Virus record (IMG/VR): IMGVR_UViG_3300022752_000052 | Location: 1-64,000 of that record | Length of the DNA stretch: 64,000 nucleotides | Origin: an uncultured virus (IMG/VR IMGVR_UViG_3300022752_000052) | Lineage: Duplodnaviria; Heunggongvirae; Uroviricota; Caudoviricetes | Reading direction: 5' to 3' (one strand) | Part shown: one piece after another, positions 401-50,569 of the stretch | Layout of the letters: the number at the start of each line of letters is the position of its first letter | How positions within the stretch are numbered: the first letter of the stretch is position 1 | Program-made: the position numbers and the translations under genes | The notes under the pieces: model-generated | Database searches by the model: none | Told to the model about the DNA's origin: nothing | What the model saw: the letters and a program-made list of their open reading frames with translations, nothing else

Positions 401-445
401 AACTTTACATTTTGTTTTACCTGGTTTTCTAAATATTTCGCGGGG

Positions 446-900
446 ACACCACATAATACATAATCCCAGCATAACATATAATAATAATAATAAACATGAC
501 AAAGATACAACATTAAAATAACATATCCAAACATTAATAACAATAAAAAATAAAAACATCCAACATAACATTAATACATTTATACTATCATGTATACTAT
601 CATGTCCTCCATACATCATCCAATATAACATGTAATAAAGACATCAATAACAATAAAAATAAAATCATAATCAACATGATAGTAACATATAATGCAATAA
701 ATAAAAAATTAAATAAAAAACATGATAAAATAATATATCATTTATTTTACCATTCCCCTAAAATAAAATACCATCATGACAATCTTCAAAAAAATCATAG
801 TAACATGATATTCAATGAGTAATATAACATGAAATAAAAAAATAATACAAATAATGTCTATCCCATGTAAAAGCCATGTTGGAAATGATGTTAATTTATC
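446..900. other. G-depleted AT-rich non-coding tract
   Basis: 9 G versus about 36 C in 481-720; begins right after TTTCGCGGGG at 436-445. Confidence 0.7.
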
Positions 901-1201
901 GTAAAATGTGCAGCAGAAAATACGCTCTATAATGTATGTAAACTTGAAGTGCATTCCTAGTAATTGATGAGGTAATTGGTTGTTTGTGAGCCCCGTTTTC
1001 ACACCGAATGCCTTTATTTCGCACACAGAGGCCGTCTAAAAGACTCTAGGTGCAACCCTTCGTCTAGTTCCACCCACCATGAGAAGATGCAGCAGAATGA
1101 ACGCTACATGCCTTAAAATTGATTCTATGATGTCTATGGGAAATTCATTTTAAACACATATTTAATATTAAAAAAACATGCATAATGATGGATTTTTTCA
1201 T

Positions 1202-1260
1202 CATTTTGTGCATTTTTTAGACATTTTGTGCATTTTTTAGACATTTTGTTGTGCATTTTT
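1202..1260. repeat. 20-bp tandem repeat (CATTTTGTGCATTTTTTAGA, about 2.7 copies)
   Basis: Directly visible. Confidence 0.8.
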
Positions 1261-1282
1261 AAGGATTATCGATAAAAAATAG

Positions 1283-1448
1283 CATTGATTGTCAACGTTT
1301 TATGATTTTTTATATTTTTTTCAACATAGGGAGATAGAAAAAAATGCATTAATTCCATCTAAAAAGCATGTTTGAAAATATTATATCATTGACAATCAAC
1401 ATTTTACATTTTTTTTATATTTTTTTCAACATAGGGAGATAGAAAAAA
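1283..1448. repeat. About 61-bp direct repeat, 2 copies (1283-1343, 1387-1448)
   Basis: CATTGA-nnn-TCAAC...TTTTTATATTTTTTTCAACATAGGGAGATAGAAAAAA in both copies. Confidence 0.8.
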
Positions 1449-1450
1449 GA

Positions 1451-1485
1451 AAAAAGGGCCGGATTATAACTTGGCCGGCCCTTTT
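1451..1485 (-). terminator. Intrinsic terminator
   Basis: AAAAGGGCCGG...CCGGCCCTTTT hairpin just after the stop of 1489-1677. Confidence 0.7.
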
Positions 1486-1488
1486 CCG

Positions 1489-1677: not shown

Positions 1678-1742
1678 GATTAAAACATTTATTGATTGAG
1701 AATAAATACTGATTTTGGCTACGTTTTACTACCGGAGTTGGT

Positions 1743-2788: not shown

Positions 2789-2937
2789 AATTTCATTTAT
2801 TTATTTGGCAAAGATAAAACATTCTATTGATATATGCAACACCTGGTCAAAGTTTTTTTCGCATAAATTTTTCCCATCTATCCAGGATGCGTTCTTCAAT
2901 TTTCCGCGGGGCCATTTTTTTCAGCCCCGCGATTAAT

Positions 2938-3805: not shown

Positions 3806-4801
3806 TTATAAACCGGTCTGTTCTAATATTTTCCGGTGTGTTGTATTGTCTATCGAATCATACCATTTTAAAAACCGTTTGATCCCTTCTCTATATTTTA
3901 CTTTTGGTTCGTAACCTAGATTTTTCAGCGGGGCTACATCAGATGCAGTAAATAAAACATCTCCGTCTTGCATCCGTTCAAAATTCCGCAGGGCCCCAAT
4001 ACCAATCTCCTCCTCCAGGACATCAATAAAATCTAATATCTTAATACTCTCATTGCTACCTATATTATATAACATGTACTTGACATCCGTTTCATTTTTA
4101 ATCACAATATTAATCCCATCAATAATATCATCAATGTAAGTAAATTCTCTAAACATCTCTCCATGATTATAAATGTCAATAGGAATCTTATTATAGATGT
4201 TATATGTAAATTTATAAACCATCATATCTGGTCTACCCCATGGACCATACACTGTAAAGAATCTAAGACCTGTAGTACGCATGTTGAACAAATGACTATA
4301 TACATGTGCCGTCAATTCATTCATCTTCTTAGTCGCTGCATAAAAGGATACTGGCCCATCCGTTCTATCATCTGTACTAAATGTCATATCCATGTTATCT
4401 CTCATTCCATATACACTTGAACTAGATGCATACACTAAATGCTTTACATCATATTTCTTACATGCTTCTATAATGGTTAAAAATCCCTGGACATTTGATC
4501 GGGCATAGAGATCCGGATTTTTAATGCTAGATCTCACTCCTGCCTGGCCCGCAAGATTTATAACCATGTCAAACTTGTGAAGAGAGAATATAGGTTCTAC
4601 CTGATCCCTGTCTGCTATGTCTACGTTGTGATACTCAATGCCCTTCGTCTTATGCAGGTTATCCAATCTCATTCTATTTAATAACCGGGCATCGCTTCTC
4701 TCAAAGAAGTCCACACCTATCACTTTGTGCCATTGGGTTAACATAGAGTGTGCTAGATGACTGCCTATAAATCCTGCGACGCCCGTTATTAGTACTTTCA
4801 T
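3806..4801 (-). CDS. NAD-dependent nucleotide-sugar epimerase (UDP-glucuronate 4-epimerase-like SDR)
   Basis: TGVAGFIG, LAGQAGVR, ASSSSVYG, YAATKK, GLRFFTVYGPWGRPDM. Confidence 0.92.
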   Translation of the reverse strand: MKVLITGVAGFIGSHLAHSMLTQWHKVIGVDFFERSDARLLNRMRLDNLHKTKGIEYHNVDIADRDQVEPIFSLHKFDMVINLAGQAGVRSSIKNPDLYARSNVQGFLTIIEACKKYDVKHLVYASSSSVYGMRDNMDMTFSTDDRTDGPVSFYAATKKMNELTAHVYSHLFNMRTTGLRFFTVYGPWGRPDMMVYKFTYNIYNKIPIDIYNHGEMFREFTYIDDIIDGINIVIKNETDVKYMLYNIGSNESIKILDFIDVLEEEIGIGALRNFERMQDGDVLFTASDVAPLKNLGYEPKVKYREGIKRFLKWYDSIDNTTHRKILEQTGL

Positions 4802-5100: not shown

Positions 5101-5175
5101 TGTGGTCAGAATAGGATTTGAACCTATATTATCAAGCTATTACCCCTGAGGTGTTACCAATTTCACCACCTGACT
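5101..5175 (-). ncRNA. tRNA-like RNA with non-canonical 8-nt anticodon loop
   Basis: AGTCAGG-TG-GTG-AAATTGGTAA-CAC-C-TCAGG-GGTAATAG-CTTGA-TAAT-ATAGG-TTCAAAT-CCTAT-TCTGACC-ACA. Confidence 0.65.
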
Positions 5176-6482: not shown

Positions 6483-6483
6483 A

Positions 6484-8568: not shown

Positions 8569-9141
8569 TTAATTTTCCGCGGGGCTACCCTCTCTATATA
8601 TCCTAATCATTTCTTCCATGTCTTCAGCATCAACATAAGAATAATCTTCCTTAATTTGTTCTTCACTTTCAATAAATCCCTCTTCAACATCAATAACAAA
8701 ATCTTCAAAAAAACCATCAGTACCTAAATGCTTATATTGATATTCCCTATAAGACATTTCAACTATACTCAATTCATCCCCATTTTCATCAATATCTATA
8801 ATACCTGCAAAGCCCATCCCTGGCTCTGAATATTCAATCCGTCCGTTCACTCCGTACTTCTTACATACTTTTTGAACAAATTCATTACATGGACTCCAAG
8901 CCGTTTCACAATTAAAATAATCATGTTGCTCCATTGTATCCCTAATGTCGTCATCCATCATCACACTCCATTTAGTACCGAACTCCGCATTCCATACATC
9001 ATAATTCCATTCACTCTTAATGTCCGTCAATGCAGTGAACATGCAATGACCATCCTTAATCATGCTAACATCTTTTTTCAATGTCTGCATAGCTTTTTCC
9101 GTACCTTCAAATGAGATACAATTTGAACACCAATTTGGCAT
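8569..9141 (-). CDS. MPNWC-start protein (DUF1281/YubB ferredoxin-like family)
   Basis: MPNWCSN, W...FGTKW, ETAWSP, YSEPGMGFAG motifs. Confidence 0.7.
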   Translation of the reverse strand: MPNWCSNCISFEGTEKAMQTLKKDVSMIKDGHCMFTALTDIKSEWNYDVWNAEFGTKWSVMMDDDIRDTMEQHDYFNCETAWSPCNEFVQKVCKKYGVNGRIEYSEPGMGFAGIIDIDENGDELSIVEMSYREYQYKHLGTDGFFEDFVIDVEEGFIESEEQIKEDYSYVDAEDMEEMIRIYREGSPAEN

Positions 9142-9434
9142 AATCTAAAAATTTAAATGGTTAATAATATGTCGCAAAGATAATAACATTCTATCTAATA
9201 TCATAATCATAGAATGAAAAATATATGTTAAATAAATGTTAAAATGAAATGCAGTAAAATGTAACTCATACTATATCTCATCTATTCCCTATCATCTAAT
9301 TGACATTGCAAAAATACACCCCATTTCCCTATTATCCTAATTTCAAATGTTAAAAGGATCTAAGAAAATGTTAAAAAAATGTTAAACCCGAATCCCCACA
9401 CATTACTGGCCATGCTGGAAAGAGGGGCCTGGAA

Positions 9435-10880: not shown

Positions 10881-10896
10881 TTTTCCGCGGGGATTT

Positions 10897-11307
10897 TTAA
10901 CTCTTATATTCCCCCAATCCCATACCGTCAGGAATAGAATCAATACACAATTTATAGTCAACCGAAACAATGTGAGAAATATCCCTATTATCAATATCTT
11001 CCCCCAGAAAAGTCCAATTAGGAGCAACTTTAGGATTGTACTTAATTTTAAAATCAGACTCTTTAATAAAATCAGAATATCTAATCTCTAAATGATTACA
11101 TAAAATCCATGCACATACAACCTTAGTACTTTCCCCATTAAAAATCTTAGTAGCTAATTTCTTATTATTCTTTAAAGTGCATCCCATCATGATTAATTGA
11201 ACTTCACATGGATTGTAATATGTGACAACTCCATTATTGCCAATCACTCTCCATTTCATATAATTTTCTCCACGTTGTAAAGAGAATCTAACTTTAATCC
11301 TTTTCAT
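10897..11307 (-). CDS. Hypothetical phage protein
   Basis: 136-aa ORF with own promoter. Confidence 0.8.
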   Translation of the reverse strand: MKRIKVRFSLQRGENYMKWRVIGNNGVVTYYNPCEVQLIMMGCTLKNNKKLATKIFNGESTKVVCAWILCNHLEIRYSDFIKESDFKIKYNPKVAPNWTFLGEDIDNRDISHIVSVDYKLCIDSIPDGMGLGEYKS

Positions 11308-11393
11308 GTTTTTTAATTTAAGTGGTTAATAATCTGATGCAAATGTAGGGGGAATATTTGATAAAGTAAATACCCCCCTATGTTAATGTTATG

Positions 11394-14033: not shown

Positions 14034-14243
14034 TTACCTTAGCTTTGCTCTAAAATAATTAAAAACTTCGGGGATATCTTTCTTGTAATACGGTTGATTA
14101 TCCTTAAGCCATTCCTTTAGTTCTTTGTCATTTTTAAAAGGTGCTGTCCAGGAATGACTATTAATAATTCTATTAAAAGTGGGCTCAAGTTCATCTATAA
14201 AATCTTGAACTGTCCAACCTTCCCAAATATGTTTATTATTCAT
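14034..14243 (-). CDS. Hypothetical protein
   Basis: Start moved to MNNKHIWEGW. Confidence 0.75.
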   Translation of the reverse strand: MNNKHIWEGWTVQDFIDELEPTFNRIINSHSWTAPFKNDKELKEWLKDNQPYYKKDIPEVFNYFRAKLR

Positions 14244-14336
14244 TTTACTTTTTTTAAGTTTTTCGCGGGGATTAATATAATTTAAAGATAGGGAGAACAT
14301 TTATATTTTTAAACATTCCCCCATCTTTTTTAAATC

Positions 14337-14729
14337 CTATCCATATATAATTTCATTTAAAAATACAATCTGTAAAACAACATCTCCAGTAACTGCATCA
14401 TCATTATCATTTATCATGTCTAACAGATGGTCTAAGGGAACATTCTTAACTCTTTCATGTACTGTATCTAATGTAATATATTCTGTATCCATTCCACCTT
14501 CAAGGTCTTTCAATCCAATTCTAACTCCATCTCTTAACATTTGCATTAAAACATCTTCATAACATGGACTACTCAATTTAGCCTTAGCATTATTGTAGTC
14601 AGATTGTTTGTACTTTAAATCAAGTCCATATCCACTACACATATAATCCAATGAATTACATAAAGCATTGAAAAAAATCTCTTCGCTCAATTCATTTGTA
14701 AGCGAAACTTTTAAACCTTCTTTGTTCAT
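14337..14729 (-). CDS. Hypothetical phage protein
   Basis: C-terminal DAVTGDVVLQ...EIIYG motif. Confidence 0.8.
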   Translation of the reverse strand: MNKEGLKVSLTNELSEEIFFNALCNSLDYMCSGYGLDLKYKQSDYNNAKAKLSSPCYEDVLMQMLRDGVRIGLKDLEGGMDTEYITLDTVHERVKNVPLDHLLDMINDNDDAVTGDVVLQIVFLNEIIYG

Positions 14730-14771
14730 TTTTTAAGTATTTAAGTGGTGATTAAGATATTGAAATTCTAC

Positions 14772-14999
14772 TTATCTGTTTTCCATAATTTGACTAATCA
14801 TAATATCCATTGCTTCCTTATGCGTGAGAATGTTTCCAAACTCTAACATACTTTCTTCATCATAATATACTCCATTTCTGTCATTCCATTTTAACCAACT
14901 AATTAAGCTTTCTCTTGTCCATTTGCTTAATTCCTCTCTTAATTGTGATTCATTCATAGAATCATCTAAGATTCCATAAAAATTATGTCTTGTTCCCAT
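14772..14999 (-). CDS. Hypothetical protein
   Basis: Start moved to MGTRHNF; WLKWNDRNGVY. Confidence 0.75.
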   Translation of the reverse strand: MGTRHNFYGILDDSMNESQLREELSKWTRESLISWLKWNDRNGVYYDEESMLEFGNILTHKEAMDIMISQIMENR

Positions 15000-15081
15000 A
15001 GATACTTTATTTAAGTGGTGATTAATATAAGGCAAAGATAAGGGGAATATTTTACATTTCCAAACATTCCCCTCACATTTT

Positions 15082-19642: not shown

Positions 19643-19682
19643 AAATTACTCGGGCTTTCTGTTAGTCAGCCCTAGCAAAATT
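19643..19682. repeat. Cassette-boundary site 9 (type B)
   Basis: CTCGGGC-TTTCTGTTAGTCA-GCCCTAG. Confidence 0.85.
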
Positions 19683-19735
19683 CGGCGGGGATTAATCATA
19701 AACCAATCCCAGCCGTAAACTACATCTATCATCAT

Positions 19736-20005
19736 CTATAAAAACCAATACTTCATGCAAACTAATGCTATATAAATCCAAACTAAATCATTAAATATAC
19801 ATTTTAAATCAATCCTATCATCTTTACTTATAATGTTTAATAATTCCTTACATATATCCCAAATGTTATTAATGACAATGATAACCAATAATAATTTAAT
19901 CCAGAATGCCCAATCATGAGGAACTGCATCAATGGATAAAAATCTCATTACATGCGTTCCAAATTGGATTGCATCATTATTCAAAAGAGATGATAGACTA
20001 TTCAT
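19736..20005 (-). CDS. Small membrane protein
   Basis: Two hydrophobic segments; lies in a skewed tract. Confidence 0.55.
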   Translation of the reverse strand: MNSLSSLLNNDAIQFGTHVMRFLSIDAVPHDWAFWIKLLLVIIVINNIWDICKELLNIISKDDRIDLKCIFNDLVWIYIALVCMKYWFL

Positions 20006-20227: not shown

Positions 20228-20286
20228 AACTATTTGTTTAAGGGGTTTAAAAAGTGCCCCGCGATATAACCGCGGGGCTTTTTTGT

Positions 20287-22889: not shown

Positions 22890-22943
22890 AACTTTAATTT
22901 TAGTGGTTAAAAATAGCCCCGCGTTTTACCGCGGGGCTTTTTT

Positions 22944-23156
22944 CTAGCATTTAGAATAGAACAAGTGGAAACTTGAACGCTCTTCTGGTGTTGCCAAGAT
23001 AGCTTCTGTCTTGCGTATGTCATCAGGAGCATCACCTATGGCATACTTTTCAACTGAAACATAAATCATACCTTCGCGAGTAATACCGGCCCATTTACCA
23101 GTTTTTAACTGAATAAATTTTGAAGCCTTAACTTCAGAAAACTTTACTTCGTACAT
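22944..23156 (-). CDS. Hypothetical protein
   Basis: Probable start MYEVKF (23156); GTG at 23180 is an alternative. Confidence 0.65.
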   Translation of the reverse strand: MYEVKFSEVKASKFIQLKTGKWAGITREGMIYVSVEKYAIGDAPDDIRKTEAILATPEERSSFHLFYSKC

Positions 23157-23277
23157 AACCTGATTTTTTAGCGCAGCCACCCCATTGCGACTACCCTACA
23201 AATATACAACAGAAAAGCATAAATTCATAACATTAGTACATATATTTTACCAAAAACACCATATTTGACCCTCAAAA

Positions 23278-23317
23278 AATTTACTCGGGCTTCCTGTTAG
23301 TCATCCCTAGCAAAATT
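23278..23317. repeat. Cassette-boundary site 14 (type B)
   Basis: CTCGGGC-TTCCTGTTAGTCA-TCCCTAG-CAAAATT. Confidence 0.8.
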
Positions 23318-23431
23318 CGTTCTGTCCGTCAATTCATCCGTCCATCTATTCGTTCTATCCGTCATTGCATCTATCCGTCTTTTATATGGGTCTGTCCGTC
23401 GGTGCCGTTCTATTGTGCTGTTCTGTTTGTT

Positions 23432-23957
23432 TTTTGCGGGGAACTATCATGTACATATAATATCAATCCAGAAATATAATACATCTTTTATAAACATTCA
23501 ATTATACATCACTTACATTATATAACATTTAATATAACATCTATCATAACATCTAAACTACATTATATCATATCATCTTATATACATTATCCTATACATA
23601 CATCTAATAATACATCTATCTACCATACATCTAATATACAACATTTATATTACATATCCTAACATCTATCTATATAACATTAAATAAAAAATATAATATC
23701 TAATATACATCTATCTATCATCTAATATAACATCATTTAATCTATATAACATCTATACAACATAAGGTATATCATTTAATCTATATAACATCTAATATAC
23801 ATCTAATATACATGGTACATATCTTATCAGGCAATTCATTATATGTTTTATTATATCCTATTCATCTATCATCTATCTATCATCTATTGTATCATGTGTA
23901 TCTAATGTATCTAATGTGTGTGATGTATGTAGTGTGTGTGATGTAATTGGGCCCCGC
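23432..23957. other. Non-coding skewed tract bounded by convergent GCGGGG / CCCCGC motifs
   Basis: No G in 23472-23765; no C in 23912-23951; rich in CATCTA and CATCTATC. Confidence 0.8.
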
Positions 23958-24138
23958 GATATTGTCCTGTCTATTGTATGCCTGTCTAATGGTCTATCTA
24001 ATGCACTATCTAATGTGTGCCTGTTATTGTATGTGTGTGTCGTTGGGTGCCCCCTACGTCGTCGGGCGAAGCCCAGATCTAATAGGGTTAGAACCAGGCA
24101 AAAAAAAACCCCGAACCGTCACCGGCCGGGGTTTCTGT

Positions 24139-24384: not shown

Positions 24385-24446
24385 AATATAAAATTTAAGT
24401 GATTAAAAAATTTACGCGTTGTTGGTATGCGCGCCCCACCTTTGAT

Positions 24447-26907: not shown

Positions 26908-26909
26908 AA

Positions 26910-28781
26910 ATGAAAAAAGTATTTAGTATTATTTCTTTGTTTTTTTTCTTTTTTTCGCTACATGCACAAAAAGAAAATCCGGTATCTATATTTTTCAAAG
27001 ATGAATTTTTTTCGTTAATTGAAGAAGAGGTACAACATGTAAAATATATGATGATAAACAAAAGCCAGGTAGATTATATTTTTGAGTCGAAGCCTGATAG
27101 TGTTTCCATTATTTTACCTACTCCAAAAAGAAAAGAGATTATAGATTTGGAGAGAATTGATTTATTTACGGATAGCGCGAGTATATATACAAGTTCTGGA
27201 AAATCCCATAAACCTACTTGTTTAGTTTACTATGGAAAAGTGCGAGGAGATGATGGAGGATTTGCTAGTGTTGTTATAGATAAAGACGTTTTCTACTCTC
27301 ATATTATGGGTGATGGCCAAGGATGGATTTTTTCTTCTGTAGATGGATTGCTTTACGGAACGTGGAATCAAGAAAATTACAAAGATACTACAAATTTTAA
27401 GTGTGTTATGTTAGATAGGGAGGGGAGTGTAATTACGAATGAAGTAAATAAAAAGGTAGGTACTCCTGTAGATAAATTAATAACCATGTATATTGAAGCT
27501 GATTATGGCATGTATACTAAGCTAGGTAGTGCTAAAAAAGTAATTAGTTTTATAGAGAATGTATTTGCGCAAACTTTTATACTGTACAAGAATGAAAAAA
27601 TAAACATAAAAATAAACAGGTTAAAAATATGGGATACTCCTAGTGGGTATACTTATAATAGTTATGAGATGTTATTTAGTTTTGGTTATCAAATGAGAAA
27701 ACAACCTTTGACAGAAACCTTTGGAAAATTAGTATCTCTTGAAGGATCTTTTGGTGTTGCGTGGTTGAATTCATTATGTGATGATCCTTTTTATAGAACT
27801 AGTTATTCTGGATTAACGGAGAATACCTTACCTTATCCGAATTATTCTTGGAACTCTCACGTAATGACACATGAAATTGGGCATAACATAGGTTCTCCGC
27901 ACACACAATCATGTTCTTGGAATGGAAATAATACTGCGCTTGATGGTTGTTGGTTTATAGAGCCTACCGGTCCTGTTCCCTGCAAAACTCCTGAAATTAC
28001 CCCATACACAAAAGGGACTATAATGTCTTACTGTCACTTAAATCTAAATGTAGGAGTAGATTATAAATGGGGCTTTGGATTGCAGCCCGGAAATTTAATA
28101 CGCCAAAAAGTATCTTTCGCTAATTGTCTAGAAAAATATTTGCCTGAAAGTAAAGAATGTCCGGGTAAAGATTCTTCTTACACAAAGATAAATATAAAAA
28201 TTTCTGCGAATAAATTTTTTGAGGATTTTTACTATTCTATAAAACAAAACAATAAAATAGTATTAGAGTATAATCCAAATCAAAAGAGGTTAACACAAGA
28301 TACTTCGGTTTGTATTTTAAAAGACTCCTGTTTTACTTTGACTATAAGACATATGGCTAAGCCTCCTTTTGTGAATAAAATAAACTTTTCTATACATCAT
28401 GATTCTATTGTTATTTATGAAATATCTAATGTATACAGAACAAATGATTCAATAAAATTATGTCTTAATAATCAAACTGTAAAAAAAATAAATCAAAATC
28501 TTTTACCTCTGTCCAAAGATAATATAATGTACAATGATTGGATGAATGATGAAATGCAAATTGATAGATGGAACATGTTTTTGAATTTTAATGACATGCT
28601 ATTTACAGATTTATTTAGCGAATGGAAACTATATAATCTTAACGGTGTTTTAGTGGGATCCGGTAATAGTATTAATGACTTAAATGATAAACAAAGAAAA
28701 TTAGCAACAGGAATTTATATTTTATTAGGAAATAATAAATACTATAAGAAAATTTTTATATCAAACAATACAATTAAATAA
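26910..28781 (+). CDS. Secreted M12 (reprolysin-like) zinc metalloprotease with T9SS-like C-terminal domain
   Basis: Signal peptide, HEIGHNIGSPH, Met-turn GTIMSYCH, C-terminal LYNLNG.LV...LATGIYIL...KKIFI. Confidence 0.85.
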   Translation: MKKVFSIISLFFFFFSLHAQKENPVSIFFKDEFFSLIEEEVQHVKYMMINKSQVDYIFESKPDSVSIILPTPKRKEIIDLERIDLFTDSASIYTSSGKSHKPTCLVYYGKVRGDDGGFASVVIDKDVFYSHIMGDGQGWIFSSVDGLLYGTWNQENYKDTTNFKCVMLDREGSVITNEVNKKVGTPVDKLITMYIEADYGMYTKLGSAKKVISFIENVFAQTFILYKNEKINIKINRLKIWDTPSGYTYNSYEMLFSFGYQMRKQPLTETFGKLVSLEGSFGVAWLNSLCDDPFYRTSYSGLTENTLPYPNYSWNSHVMTHEIGHNIGSPHTQSCSWNGNNTALDGCWFIEPTGPVPCKTPEITPYTKGTIMSYCHLNLNVGVDYKWGFGLQPGNLIRQKVSFANCLEKYLPESKECPGKDSSYTKINIKISANKFFEDFYYSIKQNNKIVLEYNPNQKRLTQDTSVCILKDSCFTLTIRHMAKPPFVNKINFSIHHDSIVIYEISNVYRTNDSIKLCLNNQTVKKINQNLLPLSKDNIMYNDWMNDEMQIDRWNMFLNFNDMLFTDLFSEWKLYNLNGVLVGSGNSINDLNDKQRKLATGIYILLGNNKYYKKIFISNNTIK

Positions 28782-28783
28782 TA

Positions 28784-29044
28784 ATGTTTGACTGTATACT
28801 TCTTTTTACATTTCAAGTATTTTTTAACATTTTAAAGACATTAGAAATAAGATATACATATAATAATCAAATTACTAAATCTTTGATAAATACCATTATG
28901 ATAAACGTAATATCTTTAGCATCATTATATTTTTCTATTGATGCTTTAATACAAGGAAATTTATACATGATAGCATCCTATATCTTGGGTAGCTTTAGTG
29001 GAAAATTTATTAGCATGAAGTATATGAATAATAAAAAAATGTAG
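28784..29044 (+). CDS. Small multi-TM membrane protein
   Basis: Hydrophobic 86 aa. Confidence 0.7.
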   Translation: MFDCILLFTFQVFFNILKTLEIRYTYNNQITKSLINTIMINVISLASLYFSIDALIQGNLYMIASYILGSFSGKFISMKYMNNKKM

Positions 29045-29107
29045 AATAGTTTAAAAAAATGCTTGTAATTGTACTATAAGTACATATTTATGCTAAAAAA
29101 TAAACTA

Positions 29108-29464
29108 ATGAAAATTTATTTGACTATACTGCTATTGTTAGCTAGTACTTTACTCCTTAGTCAAGAGTATAAAGATTCTATATCAATTAACTACGGGCCC
29201 TGGGGAGTTTACCGAGACGGTGTATATACCTATGGAGGAAAAGTCATGAAAAATAAAGAAAGTTTTATATACGAGTTAATGAGCAATTTATACATAGATA
29301 GAGACAACAGAATTATAACAGAATACGATTTTATCTATTGTTATTCTTTATGGAATGGCAATTTTTACATCAGAGATAAAACTTTTGTGTACTTTGATTT
29401 CTTTAAGTTAAGTGTAAGAAAAGAAATAAAATCTTGGATAAAGAGAAAAAAACTTGCGCGGTAA
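29108..29464 (+). CDS. Secreted hypothetical protein
   Basis: MKIYLTILLLLASTLLLS-Q signal-like start. Confidence 0.65.
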   Translation: MKIYLTILLLLASTLLLSQEYKDSISINYGPWGVYRDGVYTYGGKVMKNKESFIYELMSNLYIDRDNRIITEYDFIYCYSLWNGNFYIRDKTFVYFDFFKLSVRKEIKSWIKRKKLAR

Positions 29465-29607
29465 ACTTTTTTTTCTTATATTTGTTGAAATATTACGATG
29501 AATAAAGAAAATAACGCGAAAGAAAACCTTTTATCTTCGGGAAAAGTTTTTAAGGTAAAAATACTTTTACAAGAAAGTATTATATATACTACTGTAATAA
29601 ATAAAAA

Positions 29608-29679
29608 AGCGGGATAGTGTAATGGTTAACACATAGGACTCATGATCCTATACTGCTAGTTCGACTCCAGCTCCCGCTA
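29608..29679 (+). tRNA. tRNA with CAT anticodon (Met or Ile2)
   Basis: AGCGGGA/TCCCGCT acceptor, GTGT/ACAC D stem, TAGGA-CTCATGA-TCCTA, TTCGACT T loop; one T-stem mismatch; CCA not encoded. Confidence 0.85.
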
Positions 29680-29788
29680 CTAATTCTTTTTCGATTTCCT
29701 CTCAAACAAAGTAATATTTTATAACATAACTCACACGTAATATGTGAGCATACTAAAAATTTTTTATAACAAAACAAAATCTTTAAAA

Positions 29789-30319
29789 ATGAAAAAGGAC
29801 TCTTTAGAACAAGTTGTTAAATTTCAAAAAATGTTAGGTCGACATGAAGAAAAATCTGTGGAACATGTACAAAATGCTTTATCTTTGTTTATGGACGAAG
29901 TCGCAGAATTTATAGATGAATTTGTTGTACTTGATGAAAGCGATTTACAAGATAATGTAGATTTTGATATATTAGACCGCAGAAATATTGCTAAAGAGTC
30001 TATAGATATTATTTACACATTAGTAGGTATATTAGAGATAATGAATATACCTGTTGTTGAATCTTTGCAGAGAGTAAATGAAAGTAATTTTTCTAAGTTT
30101 TTACCTTCAAAAACTATGGCGGAATCTCAAGTTTTAGCAGTAAGAAAAAAGTATCAAATGATTGAAGGAGGAGAAACTGTAGATGTTAAATCTGTAAATT
30201 TTGAGGGGGAAGATTATTTTTATTTATCTAGAACCTCTGATGGTAAAATGTTGAAACCTATGTCTTATGAAGAAGCCGATATGTCTCACATCGATTCTCC
30301 GGGAATTGAAAGAGTGTAA
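29789..30319 (+). CDS. MazG-like / PRA-PH nucleotide pyrophosphohydrolase
   Basis: DE..EF, KE..DI.Y, V.ESNFSK, DGKMLKP. Confidence 0.75.
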   Translation: MKKDSLEQVVKFQKMLGRHEEKSVEHVQNALSLFMDEVAEFIDEFVVLDESDLQDNVDFDILDRRNIAKESIDIIYTLVGILEIMNIPVVESLQRVNESNFSKFLPSKTMAESQVLAVRKKYQMIEGGETVDVKSVNFEGEDYFYLSRTSDGKMLKPMSYEEADMSHIDSPGIERV

Positions 30320-30321
30320 AA

Positions 30322-31239
30322 ATGGGAGAAAAAATGGAAACCTATGTGAGGGAAAATAAAAAATTGCCGATATATCTAGGTTTGGCTATTGTTATATCCT
30401 TTCTTTTAGGGTCTTTATCAAGCCATAATTCTTTTCCTAGTTATGATAAACATGAAATATTTTCCGGGGGTTCTATTGAATATGTTGTGAAATATGTATA
30501 TGATACCGTGTATGTAGAAAAATCGTCTTACAAGATAATTAAAGATACGGTGTATATAGAAAATAAAGTAAATATGGTAAAGGACGGAGTTGCGGTTAAA
30601 CCTAACAAATCCGTTCCTTTTACTATTCCTTTTACAACATTTTCATCTAGATCTCATGGTCACGATTTTAAAGAATATACTCATACTGAGGCTATAGAGT
30701 ATTTACAGAATAAAGGATTTAGAAATCTAAATGGACTTAGTCTAACGACTTTACGTAGAATAAACTTACTTTATAATTATGACTCTCTTCTATATGCCGT
30801 ACATCATATGACAGATTTTCCTGTATCATTTATTTATGCGTACTTTATATTAGAAGCTACTTCAGCAGGGGTAGAAACAGATTTATGGAGGTTATACGGC
30901 AATCCTGGAGGAGTGAAGAAATTGGGTAATCATAACTGGATTAATTTAAAAACAGTTGAGTACATTAAAGGCCGTAGAAGAACTGTAAAACAAAAATTCT
31001 TCTCCGCTAAAAATACCGAAGAAGGTCTTAAAGTATGGGCATCCGTTTTTAATGCTAATAGATATGAGAAGTGTAAAAAAACAGATTATAGTCTTCCTCA
31101 AATGCAAATTTACAGAAACTTATGTAAATGTATGATGAAGTCCGGATATCATACAAGTCCTGATTATGAAATTAGAGCTGAGTATATGAAAGAATATTGG
31201 GATTTTAAAAAATTATATTTTCCTAAAAGATTAAAATAA
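30322..31239 (+). CDS. Membrane-anchored glucosaminidase-like peptidoglycan hydrolase
   Basis: N-terminal TM; ILEAT, NPGGVK, SGYHTSPDY motifs. Confidence 0.65.
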   Translation: MGEKMETYVRENKKLPIYLGLAIVISFLLGSLSSHNSFPSYDKHEIFSGGSIEYVVKYVYDTVYVEKSSYKIIKDTVYIENKVNMVKDGVAVKPNKSVPFTIPFTTFSSRSHGHDFKEYTHTEAIEYLQNKGFRNLNGLSLTTLRRINLLYNYDSLLYAVHHMTDFPVSFIYAYFILEATSAGVETDLWRLYGNPGGVKKLGNHNWINLKTVEYIKGRRRTVKQKFFSAKNTEEGLKVWASVFNANRYEKCKKTDYSLPQMQIYRNLCKCMMKSGYHTSPDYEIRAEYMKEYWDFKKLYFPKRLK

Positions 31240-31273
31240 TTTTGCCCTATACTATTTATTTAAAAATGAAGAT

Positions 31274-31573
31274 ATGAACCAAAAAGTAATTGAACAAATG
31301 AAGGAATCTCTAGCTGAGTATGAAATGCTAGATTTAGGTGTAAATAAACTTGAAGATAAGGATATGTTCAGAGAAATTCTGAAAATTTTCTTTAGGAACA
31401 TGGATAAAACAATTTTCAAAACAGACAAACAAGGAAATGTTTTATTTAATGATGAGGGTGAGGAAATAATTAACTGGTTTGAATTAGTTAAACTTGTTTT
31501 ATTTAGTTTATCAAAATTAATTGGTAATTATATGGCCCTCAAAAAAATTGCTCAAGTAAAAAAATTATTATGA
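31274..31573 (+). CDS. Hypothetical protein
   Basis: 99 aa, coupled to the S8 gene. Confidence 0.7.
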   Translation: MNQKVIEQMKESLAEYEMLDLGVNKLEDKDMFREILKIFFRNMDKTIFKTDKQGNVLFNDEGEEIINWFELVKLVLFSLSKLIGNYMALKKIAQVKKLL

Positions 31574-33102
31574 AATTTTCCGTATCTGATTTACAATTCG
31601 CACAAAGAGTTAATTTTGATCTATTAGCCAAGTATTTTAATGCTTTAGGAGAAAACCATGATATTATCCTTCCGCCACCGCCTACTCCTATTTACGCAAC
31701 ATTACAATCTAGTATATTATCAAATGGTAACTGGGGATATTCGTTTTTGAAAACTGATTTTATTGCTGAAAAAATAAAAAAGGGTGAGAAACCTTCTCGT
31801 AAAATATTGTATTGTGTTGTCGATACCATGGCGTATCCAAATCACAATGATTTATTATCGGGCAATCAATTTGTTCCAAAAAAGTTTTGCTTGGATCACA
31901 CTACGGATAAAACCGGAATCGATGGTCATGGACATGGTCACCACGTTTCAGGTACTATTATGGGGAAACATCCTAATGGATTCCCGCTTGGTCTTGCCTA
32001 TGTTAAAGACGTACCTACCGAAGATCTTATTATGGCACAAAAGGGATTAAATTCCAATGGTTCTGGCGCATCCGATTGGCTAGTAAACGCAATTTTACAT
32101 GCGGCTAATGTATGGGAAACGGAGTATAAAAAACTAGGTTATTTGCTTGTTTACAATTTCTCTTGGGGAGGCGGGAGCGAAACTCCGGCAATATCAAGAG
32201 CAATTGAGCAAGTTATTGCTAGAGGAGCCTTTGTAAATGCTGCTGCCGGTAACGACGGTAGCGGAGTGGTAGGTTGGCCTGCTGCTCATAAGGAAGTAAT
32301 TTCTTGGGCGGCTTGTGATCAATCAGGTAGAAGAGCTAATTTTTCTCAATATGGAAATGAATTAGAGGCAATAGCTCCAGGTGTTTCTATCTGGTCTACC
32401 TTTAAAGACCCTAATAGTTATGTTTCTTGGGATGGTACAAGCATGGCTACTCCACACGGAACCGCTGCCATGGGACATGTTCTTAAGTGGTATCCAGAAA
32501 TAAAAACTCAAGCAGATTTAATTTCCTTCTTAGCAACCAATAGCACTGATGGGGGAGTTGAGGGCAAAGATATTGAGTACGGTTTCGGTTATCCTATGCT
32601 AGATAAAATGCTATCTAAGAAAACTATCATACCAGAACCAGTTAAACCTCCTGTAGAAGCTGAGGAGCCAGTAATTCCTAGTCCGGAAGCTAGGACTTCA
32701 TTTAGAAATCTTACCATAGAAATAGATGCTACACAATCGTTATTATGGAAAGTGCAGCATCCTTGGAATGATAAAAAAATAAACGCATTATTATATAATA
32801 TTAACAAATTGTCTCTTCCGGAAAAAGATAAATTAAATAATCCTAGAATTTATAAAAAAATATATATAAACAAAGTATTTTTTAAAGTTAAAAGCATGTT
32901 AAATTATGATGTAGCATTGAATTATTATAAAGAATATCTAGATTCATTCTTTAATAATCATTGTGTTTTTGTTAACAATGGTTCGGATGTTCATGATGTT
33001 CTTGCTTTTATATCTTTATCACTACAAAATTTAAAAGTTAATATAGAAACAATTCAAGCTGTAGATGAAAAAGGAAATAAAATAATTTATACTATCAAAT
33101 AA
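31570..33102 (+). CDS. S8 subtilisin-family serine protease
   Basis: VVDT, HGHHVSG, AAAGN, GTSMATPH. Confidence 0.9.
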   Translation: MKFSVSDLQFAQRVNFDLLAKYFNALGENHDIILPPPPTPIYATLQSSILSNGNWGYSFLKTDFIAEKIKKGEKPSRKILYCVVDTMAYPNHNDLLSGNQFVPKKFCLDHTTDKTGIDGHGHGHHVSGTIMGKHPNGFPLGLAYVKDVPTEDLIMAQKGLNSNGSGASDWLVNAILHAANVWETEYKKLGYLLVYNFSWGGGSETPAISRAIEQVIARGAFVNAAAGNDGSGVVGWPAAHKEVISWAACDQSGRRANFSQYGNELEAIAPGVSIWSTFKDPNSYVSWDGTSMATPHGTAAMGHVLKWYPEIKTQADLISFLATNSTDGGVEGKDIEYGFGYPMLDKMLSKKTIIPEPVKPPVEAEEPVIPSPEARTSFRNLTIEIDATQSLLWKVQHPWNDKKINALLYNINKLSLPEKDKLNNPRIYKKIYINKVFFKVKSMLNYDVALNYYKEYLDSFFNNHCVFVNNGSDVHDVLAFISLSLQNLKVNIETIQAVDEKGNKIIYTIK

Positions 33103-46325: not shown

Positions 46326-46823
46326 TTATAGTTTGTTTTTATTTCTCATTAAATACCCTAGATACTTAGACTTAGATTTTTTCTCTAGTATATAATTTCT
46401 GTGTATTTGATTTCTAGAATTATCGCACCATTCTAAATTAGAAACTGTATTATTTGTTTTGTCTCCGTCTATATGATTTACTTGTGGGTAATTATTAGGA
46501 TTTGGAATAAAAGCCATGGCTACAGCCCTATGCATTGCTACATTAAATCTTGAAATAGGTCCATCCTCTTTTGTCTCATAAGAGAATCTTATCATTAAGT
46601 AGCCGGCTGTTGTAAATGATTGGGCTAGAATTATTTCATCTAATGTATAAGACAGTTCGGAAAGAGGCTTTCCATTCTCGTTTTTTCTTTTTTGTACACA
46701 TAACCTACTCATTCTTTTTACTCTTCCTAAGTTAGAAACTTGATACCATTTTTCGTAGTTAGGAAATGGTTTCCAAACCTCTCCGGGTAAATTTTCAAGA
46801 CTTCTATTCTCTCTAATACTCAT
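46326..46823 (-). CDS. NUMOD4-HNH homing endonuclease
   Basis: EVWKP..NYE..YQVSNLGRVK; HRAVA.AF; VNHIDGDKTNN.VSNLEW. Confidence 0.9.
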   Translation of the reverse strand: MSIRENRSLENLPGEVWKPFPNYEKWYQVSNLGRVKRMSRLCVQKRKNENGKPLSELSYTLDEIILAQSFTTAGYLMIRFSYETKEDGPISRFNVAMHRAVAMAFIPNPNNYPQVNHIDGDKTNNTVSNLEWCDNSRNQIHRNYILEKKSKSKYLGYLMRNKNKL

Positions 46824-47000: not shown

Positions 47001-48263
47001 TCACTCTAATAAACAAGAATTTTTCCCTGTTTGTTGAATTAATTCCCAATATTTTTTATTGGCGCTATCTTGTATATAAACATCAGGTTCATTATAAGGT
47101 AATCTATTCATGTAAGCTCCTTTAAAAAAATATCCCTGATTTCCGGAAGTTACTCCTGCGTTATGGTAAATATTGTATCTGTACCAATCGTTCTCGGAAT
47201 CTGTAGACCAAGAGAATCCTAAATTACCATGAACTATTGTGTTTTTACCTAAATTCCATGCAGTGAAAAGAATAGCCCACATATCAGCGCACCAAATTTG
47301 CAGTTCCATGTAATTCGAATCATCTTGTTTTTTTACGTTATTTATTTGCGTAATATCAGTGTATAGTTTTTCGCACTGTTCTTCCACAGATAACCAGAAG
47401 AAAGGGCTAACATCTTTCATTATATATTGAGCTCCTATATTATTTTCGTTATTTTGTTGTACTATGCTTTTGGGTATTCCACTAATATTGCACATAGCAT
47501 TTAAAATGTCTTGTCCTTTACTTTCTATATAATCGGAAGAAAGATACGAATTGCAATTAGAGCCATACCAGTTATTGTCTTTTAATAAATCTGTAGTAAG
47601 CCACTCATTAATAGGCCTAGTAAAAGCAATATCACAATCATGGTAGAATATAATATCATCTTTTAAGCTAGGATTCCTTAGCCAGTGTTGTTTAAGTATA
47701 TTAGGTCTTATAGAAGATACATAATTTTTAGAAGTTCTAGTATCCAAGTAGAAAAAGAATTTAACATGTCTATACCTCATCAACAGTTTAAACCATTCAG
47801 TAGGGATTGTCTCAGTTTCATCTAAAGCACATACAATATTTATAGAAGCGGGATTAACACCCATTGATAGGAAATTATTAATCATTACTTCAACTTGCCA
47901 TGCATAATATAGAGTGGCCGGCTGTGCGCAAACAAATTGAACAGTTTTATCTTCAGTTTGTATGGGTTCGGGCATAACTGGATTTGTATTATATGTAGGA
48001 ATTTCAGCTGCTAATGCCTGTATTTCATCTGACATAGCTTTATCTACCTCCGCCCATTTTCCTTCCGGGCAAGCATTTTCTACCGGTGAATATATCTTAC
48101 CTTTAAGTAAGCATCCGCAAACACCACAATGAACCGTAGGAGATGTTTTCTTATGTTCACAGGCATCACAAATTTGAATTCTAGCTTCAGCTAATTTACT
48201 TTGTTTTTCATTTGGGTTTATAGCTATACCCCAAGACTTTAAAATTTCTACTAATTTATTCAT
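47001..48263 (-). CDS. Cys-rich N-domain fused to HPAT/SERGT-like glycosyltransferase
   Basis: RIQICDAC...CGVCGC.LK.K...CPEGKW, then YYAWQ, SIRP, HDCD, WCADMWA. Confidence 0.6.
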   Translation of the reverse strand: MNKLVEILKSWGIAINPNEKQSKLAEARIQICDACEHKKTSPTVHCGVCGCLLKGKIYSPVENACPEGKWAEVDKAMSDEIQALAAEIPTYNTNPVMPEPIQTEDKTVQFVCAQPATLYYAWQVEVMINNFLSMGVNPASINIVCALDETETIPTEWFKLLMRYRHVKFFFYLDTRTSKNYVSSIRPNILKQHWLRNPSLKDDIIFYHDCDIAFTRPINEWLTTDLLKDNNWYGSNCNSYLSSDYIESKGQDILNAMCNISGIPKSIVQQNNENNIGAQYIMKDVSPFFWLSVEEQCEKLYTDITQINNVKKQDDSNYMELQIWCADMWAILFTAWNLGKNTIVHGNLGFSWSTDSENDWYRYNIYHNAGVTSGNQGYFFKGAYMNRLPYNEPDVYIQDSANKKYWELIQQTGKNSCLLE

Positions 48264-48274
48264 GACTATTATTA

Positions 48275-49312
48275 CTAGTATTTAGTTACTCCGTTTAAAC
48301 TTGCTAAAATGTTATAAAAATTCAATACAAAATTCTGCGGGGAATACATATCAATCAACATATTCCTCACATTGTTATTAATATCTTTAACATCATTATT
48401 GTTCAATGACAATACAACATCAATAAGATCATTTAAATCATCCCAATTATTATTACATGCAAAATAAGTCTCCCTGTCTATATACGGATTAGGATTAGTT
48501 ATTACATTATTCATAAAAGGCTTAATCATTATACATCCAGAATTCCATATCTCAAAATCCCTAAAACATATCTCCCCCATACCAAAAGGAGATATAGCAC
48601 ATTTACTTCTCATCAATGCTATGTTATAATCCTCAGGAGAAAGCCTGCCAGAAACGATATTATAGGTATCATCCAATCTATCCAATGTATCCAAGCTCCG
48701 CTTTCTATGTCTGCTATAATATAAATCGTTGCGAATTCCAAAGTCATAATTCTCCTTATGATCCGCTTGATAAACTGCAAATATATCATGTTCCTTTTTT
48801 ACTTCATGATTCGCGAATTGCATATAATGTGGATGATAGTACCCGAGATTATAACCAGATAAAACAATGTCATCATATCTTTTTACATCATAGGAAATCT
48901 TATCCTCCCGGCCGGCATACATGTTCCACCATTCCTTACCCAATGGAGATGGAATGCTATATACATCTTTACTATATATTTGATTCTTTATTAATTTTTC
49001 TGCATTGCTATTTTCAAATACATCATAAGATCCTAAAATAGATGGAGAATCAGAACCATCATATAGCATGAATCTTCCATCTATCTCATGTAATCTCTCT
49101 AATCCATAATTAATAGACTCCTGTAAAGACTTCGCCCGCCGGTTAATAAAACATTCATCTCCTAAAATGCTTATATCCCAACTGTCTACCATATCCCCAG
49201 CAATAATAAAATCTATTCCTACATCTTTGAACAAATCTTTATACATCAAAAATCCTCTATATGTAGCCTTATTTCTACCCCTATCAACATCAACTAATCT
49301 AATACGTAACAT
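48275..49312 (-). CDS. GT-B glycosyltransferase (putative)
   Basis: SKCAISPFGMGEICFRDFE...G. Confidence 0.75.
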   Translation of the reverse strand: MLRIRLVDVDRGRNKATYRGFLMYKDLFKDVGIDFIIAGDMVDSWDISILGDECFINRRAKSLQESINYGLERLHEIDGRFMLYDGSDSPSILGSYDVFENSNAEKLIKNQIYSKDVYSIPSPLGKEWWNMYAGREDKISYDVKRYDDIVLSGYNLGYYHPHYMQFANHEVKKEHDIFAVYQADHKENYDFGIRNDLYYSRHRKRSLDTLDRLDDTYNIVSGRLSPEDYNIALMRSKCAISPFGMGEICFRDFEIWNSGCIMIKPFMNNVITNPNPYIDRETYFACNNNWDDLNDLIDVVLSLNNNDVKDINNNVRNMLIDMYSPQNFVLNFYNILASLNGVTKY

Positions 49313-49338
49313 AAGTTCAACATTTAGGAATAATCATA

Positions 49339-50109
49339 TTATAATTTAGAATACATTTCATTTTGACTTATCTGCTTATTAATACTCTTAACATGCAATA
49401 AACACCAATTCCATTCATCAGGTATAGCAGCATAATGTGAATATCCTGTAATTACTTCATGTACCTTATTCTTAAATCTAATCTTATCTAAATTCCTATA
49501 TATCCTCGTTTGATAATCCGGAAAATTAATAATAGGCTTATAATAAACAACAGACCTTATATCTTTACTACTATTAATGTTATACTCCTCCTTAATCAAA
49601 TTATTAATCTCAAGCAATTTATATAAATCAGAATAAATACTTATAGGCTCTAAAGTAGATTGAATAGCTATATCTTGTTTGCTGATTTTCCAATTCCAAT
49701 GATTAATCCATTCTTGTGTAATGTTTTCTACAATGTTAACTCTAGGAACGGCAATCATTTCCATGTCTGCATTAATTTCCAACAATGTTTTTAAATTATA
49801 CAACAAAAAATCATTCAATAACTCATCTGCATCAATTTGAAAAATCCATTCTCCTCTTGCATGCTTAAACAAATTATTTTTAAATGTTGCAAAATCTCCG
49901 TTCAATGGAAAATTAACATGATTTATATGTTCTGATATAGGATGATTCTTAATTACATCCAAAACATCATTAGTTACCCTGGAGGAGTCCGTCTGCACAA
50001 TAATTTCCGTATCTACTGCAATAACTCCCTCCAATAAAGAAAGTAAGACAAATAACTCATCTTTCTCATCACAGGCAGTAACACAATATGAAAGGTAAAT
50101 GTTATCCAA
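49339..50109 (-). CDS. Glycosyltransferase family 2
   Basis: F...KN, WIFQIDADE, PDYQTRIYRN, VHE. Confidence 0.85.
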   Translation of the reverse strand: MDNIYLSYCVTACDEKDELFVLLSLLEGVIAVDTEIIVQTDSSRVTNDVLDVIKNHPISEHINHVNFPLNGDFATFKNNLFKHARGEWIFQIDADELLNDFLLYNLKTLLEINADMEMIAVPRVNIVENITQEWINHWNWKISKQDIAIQSTLEPISIYSDLYKLLEINNLIKEEYNINSSKDIRSVVYYKPIINFPDYQTRIYRNLDKIRFKNKVHEVITGYSHYAAIPDEWNWCLLHVKSINKQISQNEMYSKL

Positions 50110-50569
50110 TTTCTTTATGTTTTGGTAAATTTAATTCATATAATTTTTCAAAAGCATTAGAAAAAGCATCCGCATTAAATTCAATACAATTATCTACATC
50201 AACTTTTCTCCTTATTATAGCATTAGGGTAATTCTTAACATCATCATCCGTAAAATCAATAATCTCACATACCTTCCAAACCATCCTCTTAGTATCCCCT
50301 TCGTCCGGAAAAATTACCGCCTTGTCTAAAGAAAATACAAAAGGATACCATACCAAGTTTTCTACATCAACGTGTCTTTTATCTATACAAATTCGGGGCA
50401 GCGTCGACTCATACTGAATCTGGGCGTCGGAGCCTAGAACTAGGCTCGAGTCTGTATAGTAGCCGCTGCCCATGCAAAGTTTTGTCAGCAATCCAGTATC
50501 TGTAAGTTCTACAATTACTTCTTGTTGTCCGGTTATAGGAGATAGTTCCTCGAAAGTTACATCAATCAT
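50102..50569 (-). CDS. Hypothetical protein
   Basis: 155 aa in operon. Confidence 0.75.
   Translation of the reverse strand: MIDVTFEELSPITGQQEVIVELTDTGLLTKLCMGSGYYTDSSLVLGSDAQIQYESTLPRICIDKRHVDVENLVWYPFVFSLDKAVIFPDEGDTKRMVWKVCEIIDFTDDDVKNYPNAIIRRKVDVDNCIEFNADAFSNAFEKLYELNLPKHKEIG

Follow-up and report, generated by a model that had tools for sequence, protein, structure and literature searches.

Short oriented words and strand-specific tracts are known from several systems that bear comparison with the element examined here, which lies in a window comprising bases 1-64000 of a 77.6-kb contig of an uncultured virus (IMG/VR record IMGVR_UViG_3300022752_000052; some of the counts below span the whole contig). 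The element is carried by the - strand, which is the gene-sense strand unless noted otherwise, and consists of a C-poor, T-rich zone of 100-700 nucleotides (nt), then the hexamer CCCCGC, then N-GAA(A/T)(A/T)T with about 30 nt of A-rich sequence. Rut tracts, which are C-rich, G-poor and unstructured, share with it a strand-specific extent of at least 100 nt, an imbalance of C and G, low structure and polar action, the + strand of the zone being G-poor; the gene-sense RNA of the zone is nevertheless the opposite of a rut tract (C-poor with normal G), the non-coding zones show no C enrichment, and a fixed GC-rich hexamer at the border falls outside the rut definition. The Chi sites of RecBCD and AddAB are likewise short, over-represented and strictly oriented G/C-rich words whose polarity defines a single-stranded tail 5' of the site, but copies of the present motif cluster in the early region and not genome-wide, and we know of no flanking base-avoidance zone for Chi. 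The promoter-early stem-loop (PeSL) cassettes of T4-type phages, reportedly described by Arbiol and colleagues in 2010, have counterparts in the early region of the window, where repeated hairpin and early-promoter cassettes (families D7, D9 and D10) stand between small genes and the motif is often found at the junction of gene and cassette; here, however, the cassettes are depleted only when the motif is present, and to our knowledge neither motif nor C-poor zone is part of the PeSL description. The deamination gradients of the vertebrate mitochondrial H strand and of the bacterial non-transcribed strand shift in the same direction and are graded with distance, whereas the present shift is anchored to a motif, operates on a scale of a few hundred nt and is accompanied by a substitution flux that points to selection. 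Finally, T4 origins are reported near gene-direction switches, and oriE among them contains 12-nt repeats (PMC3016281); the window holds a conserved non-coding array of 12-nt period near a gene-direction switch, but oriE lies inside gene 5. The T4 origins oriF and oriG are built from a promoter and an unwinding element with an R-loop. Nine or more motif copies are too many for origins, and the U-rich sense RNA of the zones (T 0.40-0.45) would give weak RNA-DNA hybrids.

An oriented motif and its adjoining C-poor zones

The oriented motif and the depletion that adjoins it are confirmed. Read on the + strand the motif is TTYNGCGGGG, which a preliminary description, made from the sequence alone, had taken as the start of G-depleted tracts; all nine of the copies that it listed are present, every one on the + strand, against a shuffle mean of 0.25 and a maximum of 2. 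In the 77.6-kb contig the core GCGGGG occurs 13 times and CCCCGC five times on the + strand, where composition predicts about 0.8 and 2, and three copies of each pair as hairpins (2906/2925, 20257/20272 and 22917/22931). All 10 non-hairpin consensus copies (nine in the window and one at 65995) read CCCCGC on the gene-sense strand. To the right of the copies, G over 300 nt is at most 0.09 at eight of nine sites, in a contig with a mean of 0.141 and a 5th percentile of 0.09; the sole exception is the copy at 2902 (0.123), for which a weak effect had already been noted. The G counts given at the outset are exact (9 G and 36 C in 481-720, 5 G in 19691-19860, none in 23472-23765), and the last of these tracts, at 294 nt, is the longest G-free run, the maximum in 200 shuffles being 96 nt.

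The genes of the contig are almost all on the - strand, with the exception of 26344-33102, and the first 25 kb contain many small genes with repeated hairpin-plus-promoter cassettes and terminator elements between them. When gene orientation was controlled by permutation within the - strand-coding parts, mean G over 240 nt was 0.064 at the nine sites against 0.137 +/- 0.011, and none of 100,000 random sets was as low. The final 240 nt of - strand genes average 0.085 G when the motif is present (n=6) and 0.136 when it is not (n=72). As controls, nine terminator elements of the D6 family (mean G 0.172, range 0.154-0.200) and nine motif-free hairpin-promoter cassettes (0.117-0.196) are not depleted. 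Six of the ten top-scoring G-poor segments start at most 26 nt from GCGGGG or from a one-mismatch copy (GCAGGG, 3988-3993), and the other four are G-poor tracts free of the motif. The mirror-image tract described ahead of the reversed copy at 23952 exists but is short: 23800-23951 holds 20 C, and the last 45-60 nt alone are C-poor (3 C in the final 60 nt). The promoter boxes of the early region fit TAnnTTTG, the Bacteroidota promoter consensus. The copies and zones of the window, with their immediate surroundings, are:

436..445, - strand: motif copy (- strand reading CCCCGCGAAA), about 50 nt past the TAnnTTTG box at 507 and within the 5' leader of a QV-repeat gene
446..799, - strand: non-coding C-poor zone, its + strand holding 12 G and 61 C
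2902..2911, - strand: motif copy, 3' arm of a hairpin (GCGGGGC..GCCCCGC); depletion weak
3924..3933, - strand: motif copy within the epimerase gene 3806-4801
3984..3993, - strand: one-mismatch copy, TTCCGCAGGG on the + strand, abutting the tract within the epimerase gene
3994..4164, - strand: C-poor zone within the epimerase gene
8575..8584, - strand: motif copy within the final codons of gene 8569-9141, which encodes a DUF1281_C protein; followed by a hairpin-promoter cassette
8585..9364, - strand: C-poor zone with its core at 8585-8806 (8 G on the + strand), covering the gene up to promoter boxes 9182 and 9316
10883..10892, - strand: motif copy just past the stop of gene 10897-11307, upstream of a hairpin-promoter cassette
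10893..11312, - strand: C-poor zone over gene 10897-11307 (sense C 0.092), until promoter box 11347
14261..14270, - strand: motif copy a few nt past a promoter-like box, within the leader of gene 14034-14240
14271..14990, - strand: C-poor zone spanning genes 14337-14729 (sense C 0.089) and 14772-15035 (sense C 0.095), until promoter box 15040
19681..19690, - strand: motif copy, 3' arm of a hairpin (GGCUGGGAUU..AAUCCCCGCC), adjoining a terminator element and just past a gene stop
19691..19903, - strand: C-poor zone in the 3' part of gene 19736-20005
23432..23441, - strand: motif copy bordering a conserved non-coding repeat region on one side
23452..23888, - strand: the zone with the strongest depletion, 437 nt with 8 G, made up of TAGATGTTATAT-like repeats of 12 nt that relatives keep
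23952..23957, + strand: inverted copy, CCCCGC on the + strand, at the opposite edge of the repeat region; about 45-60 nt on its 5' side C-poor on the + strand
48333..48342, - strand: motif copy in the last 20 codons of gene 48275-49312, a position common to six relatives
48343..48458, - strand: C-poor zone; C is moderately low (0.10) over the whole of genes 48275-49312 and 49339-50109

The placement of the motif relative to genes varies, from leaders to last codons, the DNA just past a stop, the inside of a gene and non-coding DNA, and in relatives it also occupies a spacer of about 25 nt between two genes; many copies stand 8-45 nt ahead of a start codon. At three sites the span from promoter box to motif matches the zone (9316/9182 to 8584, 11347 to 10892 and 15040 to 14270), and the zones elsewhere are shorter (120-240 nt). 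Two simple roles were considered and rejected. A role as part of a promoter is contradicted by the lack of a second conserved element at a fixed distance and by the start codon only 27 nt away at 14270. An intrinsic terminator of the sense strand would not carry an A-rich tail in place of a U-run, and no more than 32 of the 72 sites place the motif in a hairpin; the true terminators, which lie at 20257-20277 and 22917-22936, combine a CCCCGC/GCGGGG stem with T-runs.

Several features of the early region adjoin these copies. At window positions 1-430 lie two tandem small genes whose proteins consist almost entirely of a four-residue x-x-Q-V repeat (12-nt period in the DNA, about 27 copies); the same conserved leader precedes each QV-repeat gene, and both the contig and its 99% identical twin end within the array. 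The product of the C-poor gene 8569-9141 is acidic and has a DUF1281_C (Api92-like) domain, a family known from the leading regions of conjugative plasmids. Between 6176 and 17406, many hairpin and early-promoter cassettes (families D5, D7, D9 and D10, with the TAnnTTTG box) stand between small genes. The D6 terminator family has nine elements between 9425 and 22698, each with a 13-bp GC-rich stem followed by AAATTTTTGCAGGGG; this tail is similar to the motif read on the opposite strand, and the left flank GTGAATTTCGC is similar to the A-rich tail of the motif.

Conservation, composition and substitutions of the zones

The proposal that the pattern is evolutionary agrees with its occurrence in relatives that share about 69% identity in the adjacent protein. 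Six relatives (L002 and L005-L009; 68-69% identity in that protein) carry the motif, flanks included, at an unchanged position, and five related contigs keep motif and zone (65 sites). The 14-nt form CCCCGCGGAAAATT was found in 52 stretches of the whole viral collection; in low-GC relatives C is at most 0.108 over the upstream 240 nt at 19 of 19 sites, against 0.18-0.25 upstream of three unrelated low-GC matches, and the motif read backwards scores 0 in relatives. In the sense-context profile of CCCCGC (n=74 in six contigs, 65 of the sites outside this contig, the genomes being related and the sites not independent), C falls from 0.14 at -400 to 0.06 at the motif and stands at 0.15 right after it, while T rises from 0.30 to 0.40; G is not lowered, which argues for a skew and not for AT-richness. 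A reaches 0.44 in the first 30 nt after the motif, and the baseline composition is back immediately past the A-rich tail. The shift is graded toward the motif and stops abruptly at it. The C content of a whole gene does not follow a downstream motif: this idea was rejected on the MNKEGLK gene, whose G007 ortholog has the motif and yet a C content of 0.148, and the last 150-250 nt alone are consistently depleted.

Within 300 nt 5' of the motif, sense C at codon positions 1, 2 and 3 is 0.074, 0.117 and 0.071, against 0.113, 0.185 and 0.116 elsewhere, a proportional loss of 35-39% at every codon position, constrained and synonymous alike. The preliminary description had placed the shift at synonymous positions; third positions do shift, but C is lost at positions 1 and 2 as well. 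Its reading of the shift as C>T plus A>G on the CCCCGC strand 5' of the motif is matched at third positions, where C goes from 0.116 to 0.071 (-0.045) and A from 0.389 to 0.282 (-0.107), with gains of T from 0.370 to 0.464 (+0.094) and of G from 0.125 to 0.183 (+0.058). The loss of A and the gain of G are confined to codon position 3, and in the non-coding DNA of the zones C is 0.025 against 0.161, with A and G unchanged. The epimerase gene shows the shift inside one conserved enzyme: from codon 105 on, C-ending codons make up about one eighth of the synonymous choices, down from about half, C is nearly gone from positions 1 and 2 in codons 211-260 (the 50 before the motif-like copy), and C usage recovers partly past that copy, so that amino-acid usage itself is bent inside a conserved protein. 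Paralogy of the C-poor genes was rejected (best pairwise E-value 0.045), and a search for 12-nt spacing of C or YC in the zones gave no clear period outside the repeat array.

The substitutions among relatives bear on how this composition is kept. In six comparisons, the C<->T : A<->G odds ratios of zones versus outside are 0.41, 0.65, 0.66, 0.56, 0.58 and 0.46, the direction being the same in all six (p 0.0002-0.1, below 0.05 in five), although the comparisons share genomes and are not independent. A<->G changes and transversions are not reduced inside the zones; between G006 and G007, C<->T changes per pyrimidine site amount to 0.021 in zones against 0.036 outside, with A<->G changes and transversions higher in zones. 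In contigs of four public DNA runs, two of 21 variant positions in 23472-23765 create G, a weak observation given the repetitive sequence and piecemeal coverage. Since a mutational hot spot at equilibrium should hold or raise the flux, the lowered C<->T flux would indicate selection, and biased gene conversion would look identical. The low flux, the equal loss at constrained and synonymous positions and the conservation of the largest non-coding tract together argue against a passive scar, and the avoidance of C is probably maintained by selection, or else by a bias that resembles it, for instance biased gene conversion.

The tract in question belongs to the non-coding repeat region (23150-24410), which is 85% identical over 1301 nt to that of a relative, both flanking inverted copies and the C-free array included; this conservation exceeds that of most coding DNA in the relative. 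Positions 23520-23810 have a period of 12 with 24 copies in the same orientation, and dozens of TAGAT/TAGAC cores, also in one orientation, extend over about 900 nt, the region comprising three compositional domains. This is the one site with an iteron-like feature, that is, a same-orientation repeat array in non-coding DNA by an AT-rich region. It is possible that the region is an origin or a protein-binding array; T4 oriE, being situated inside gene 5, was rejected as a model for it. A strong two-way terminator (24100-24140) forms the boundary of the region.

Candidate roles of the element

We propose, at a probability of about 0.4, that the motif and its zone form a selected, oriented cis-element acting on the sense transcript. 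This reading, which draws on sequence comparison, is based on the identity of motif strand and sense strand, on the three zones that run from promoter to motif, on a C-free stretch that follows one putative transcript in the related Flavobacterium phage vB_FspM_immuto (hereafter immuto) and on the hairpins at 32 of 72 sites. Rho loading needs C-rich RNA. The C-poor RNA made ahead of the motif would be unable to form stable G-C helices and would give the termination factor Rho no C-rich loading site. As the first C-run, CCCCGC may offer a G-run a defined partner, either upstream or in the following hairpin-promoter cassette, and it can be hypothesised that the motif sets which helix forms, in which case it would signal where a unit ends or regulate read-through to the gene that follows. 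For the copies at 8584 and 10892, the closest G-run is part of the hairpin of the following promoter cassette, and 32 of the 72 distinct sites have a predicted hairpin in which the motif, as the 3' arm, pairs with a G-run upstream, the closing pairs differing by site family (GGGA/UCCC, GGGGC/GCCCC and GGGAUU/AAUCCC). By avoiding C, the RNA may evade Rho, a C-dependent ribonuclease or CTP-directed immunity, all of them candidate benefits.

Several observations weigh against this proposal. The other 40 of the 72 sites are without such a hairpin and no single RNA structure fits all; the gradient is equally compatible with a distance-dependent DNA process; and the gain of G and loss of A at third positions are not accounted for by C avoidance alone. 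No promoter that would drive a C-free RNA was found inside the repeat region, and the inverted copy at 23952 has no adjoining + strand gene. Moreover, the C content of one orthologous gene differs among relatives, being low in some only, whether or not the motif lies downstream. A common RNA fold was also sought at nine sites, with z-scores from -3.99 to +0.89 and no shared structure.

An independent case is provided by immuto, the closest named phage, whose DNA polymerase is 47% identical over its whole length. Its early gene 127 (record 68286-68642; L121) contains 5 C in 357 nt, none of them at third positions, its neighbours having 0.055-0.18; the product, of 118 residues, is very acidic and uses almost no amino acids with C-requiring codons. 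The C-free stretch extends from just past the promoter box to the C-rich arm of the hairpin of the next cassette, and the C's found in other copies of the leader are replaced in gene 127. CCCCGC is not enriched in immuto (one copy per strand in 150 kb), which suggests that sense-strand C avoidance is older and wider than the motif. No homologue of gene 127 was found in the present lineage, the search with 21 immuto early proteins giving one unrelated match. In the account of its DNA modification, every G of immuto DNA is replaced by fdPreQ1, a 7-deazaguanine derivative (PMC10516641). The DNA polymerase and ribonucleotide reductase (RNR) genes of this contig are only two small genes apart, and immuto has que/dpdA genes between them; immuto DpdA had no match in G000-G003, which are incomplete records.

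A more specific hypothesis, which we consider improbable, is that these are C-less early transcripts that can be made without CTP, occupying a whole gene in immuto and, here, graded zones that end in a C-run checkpoint. Such RNAs would resist ddhCTP from prokaryotic viperins, CTP depletion and C-specific ribonucleases, and stalling at CCCCGC when CTP is compromised would turn the motif into a nucleotide sensor gating the next gene. Our literature search, which covered phage genes or transcripts lacking C, ddhCTP in connection with C-poor phage genes, and G-less or C-less phage sequences, found no description of the signal; for immuto, the titles and abstract openings among the matches listed contained nothing on it.

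The alternative that fares best, though we judge it unlikely, is a signal at the level of DNA, the motif serving as a Chi-like stop, as the place of a strand-specific nick or break, or as a starting point for replication or recombination. Removal of the + strand from 5' to 3', to the right of the motif, would turn the - strand zone into a single-stranded 3' tail, G/T-rich and C-poor, with the motif at its end; this tail may have been selected as a substrate of the phage recombinase and would prime forks moving with transcription. RecA prefers G/T-rich DNA, and the phage encodes a RecA-like protein, a 5'-3' exonuclease, a gp32-like protein, a DnaB-like helicase and an HNH endonuclease. The abrupt boundary at the motif and the gradient over a few hundred nt are what such a process would leave, and the zone is independent of gene and promoter position, one lying inside the epimerase gene. 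The two inverted copies flank the conserved repeat array near the gene-direction switch, as T4 origins are reported near such switch points, one of them with 12-nt repeats (PMC3016281); the analogy with oriE is loose, however, given its position inside gene 5, and the inverted copy has a zone of 45-60 nt only. A DNA-level signal does not explain immuto either, where the C-free stretch follows one transcript without CCCCGC enrichment. Known Chi sites are G-rich on the recognised strand, and with GCGGGG as Chi the zone would fall on the degraded side.

Somewhat less probable again is a polar terminator of antisense transcription on the + strand, composed of a hairpin at some sites, a U-rich run, GCGGGG and then a G-poor, A/C-rich, rut-like stretch for Rho loading. 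Over the 240 nt past the motif, the C/G ratio of the + strand is 1.8-23.5 (G 0.01-0.10) against 1.26 for the contig, and both third-position shifts, sense C down and G up, raise the antisense C/G; hairpin, U-rich run and GCGGGG follow each other on the + strand at 8575, 10883 and 19681, and a tail of a T-run and GCAGGGG also comes after the - strand terminators of the D6 family. These points are countered by the lack of an evident source of + strand transcripts in the early region, the + strand genes starting at 26344 and running away from it, and by non-coding zones in which antisense C is not enriched (0.18 vs 0.184) and G alone is lost. Outside the repeat array neither C nor YC recurs with a clear 12-nt period, the + strand hairpin is found at just three to four of nine sites, and the role of GCGGGG is left unexplained.

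A passive mutational footprint, in which the - strand by the motif is repeatedly single-stranded (in a gap, an R-loop or a replication intermediate) so that C and some A deaminate, is in our view quite improbable. The preliminary description had favoured single-stranded deamination or mispairing, with a Chi-like stop, a helicase or primase site or a processive modifier as putative agents, and both the direction of the shift (C and A down, T and G up at third positions) and its gradient do match deamination asymmetries, for which mitochondrial and transcription-strand precedents exist. A neutral origin would, however, leave constrained sites less affected and the C<->T flux undiminished; instead, C is lost equally over the codon positions, the flux is roughly halved in the zones in six of six comparisons (a result that biased gene conversion would mimic), A and G are unchanged in the non-coding zones, and the largest tract is conserved (85%). 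The C-free gene of immuto, which spans a whole transcript, points in the same direction, as do, weakly in a repetitive region, the two of 21 variants that introduce G at 23472-23765. Finally, it is barely credible that no element exists and that the pattern is a by-product of acidic early proteins, AT-rich intergenic DNA or duplicated cassettes: several genes 5' of the motif do encode acidic or hydrophobic proteins, which lowers C at codon positions 1 and 2, and the largest tract is a repeat array whose unit lacks C, but the genes are not paralogues, third positions and non-coding DNA shift as well, motif-free boundaries show nothing, and the shift occurs within one conserved enzyme gene.

The phage, its surroundings and the reach of the finding

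The protein families show the virus to be a T4-like tailed phage, of a lineage whose predicted host is of the Flavobacterium type. They include a family-A DNA polymerase, both RNR subunits, a DnaB-like helicase, a 5'-3' exonuclease, a PD-(D/E)XK nuclease, a gp32-like protein, a T4 baseplate protein and a gp19-like tail tube protein. Its relatives in IMG/VR comprise one record of 98.6 kb that is 99% identical and more distant ones of 34-143 kb, all of them fragments by the CheckV estimate; DNA-level searches of the phage collection for near and distant relatives gave nothing useful. In the Rfam scan two tRNAs alone reached the gathering score. A tRNA gene is located at 5102-5175 on the - strand (anticodon unassigned by ARAGORN, Rfam tRNA 42.7 bits), and a tRNA-Met gene at 29608-29680. 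Upstream of the + strand genes, 26040-26340 is A-rich non-coding DNA with repeated AACATGAAAT units, which look like many start-codon-like contexts with tiny open reading frames, and includes an 81-nt run without C on the + strand; the word ATGTTAT (- strand) is concentrated in this region and in the two non-coding zones. Beside the replication genes, 33103-54311 is a cluster of about 20 kb with glycosyltransferases (GT1/4, GT2 and GT8), a methyltransferase, a 2OG-Fe(II) oxygenase and genes of unknown function, and immuto has a similar cluster. Among these glycosyltransferase genes, a small NUMOD4 and HNH endonuclease gene (46326-46823) is a candidate homing or nicking enzyme.

If the proposed action on the sense transcript is correct, phages would encode a function by the absence of one base, on one strand and over hundreds of nt, to the point of bending the proteins encoded there. 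This property would be anchored to an oriented signal of 6 nt, and would represent a new type of cis-information in phage early regions. The element may bear on the means by which early genes evade termination, ribonucleases or nucleotide-based immunity of the host, or else on how replication or recombination is started at fixed sites. As immuto is a cultured phage, with a nearly C-free early gene in a DNA whose G is replaced, it makes the question directly testable at the bench.

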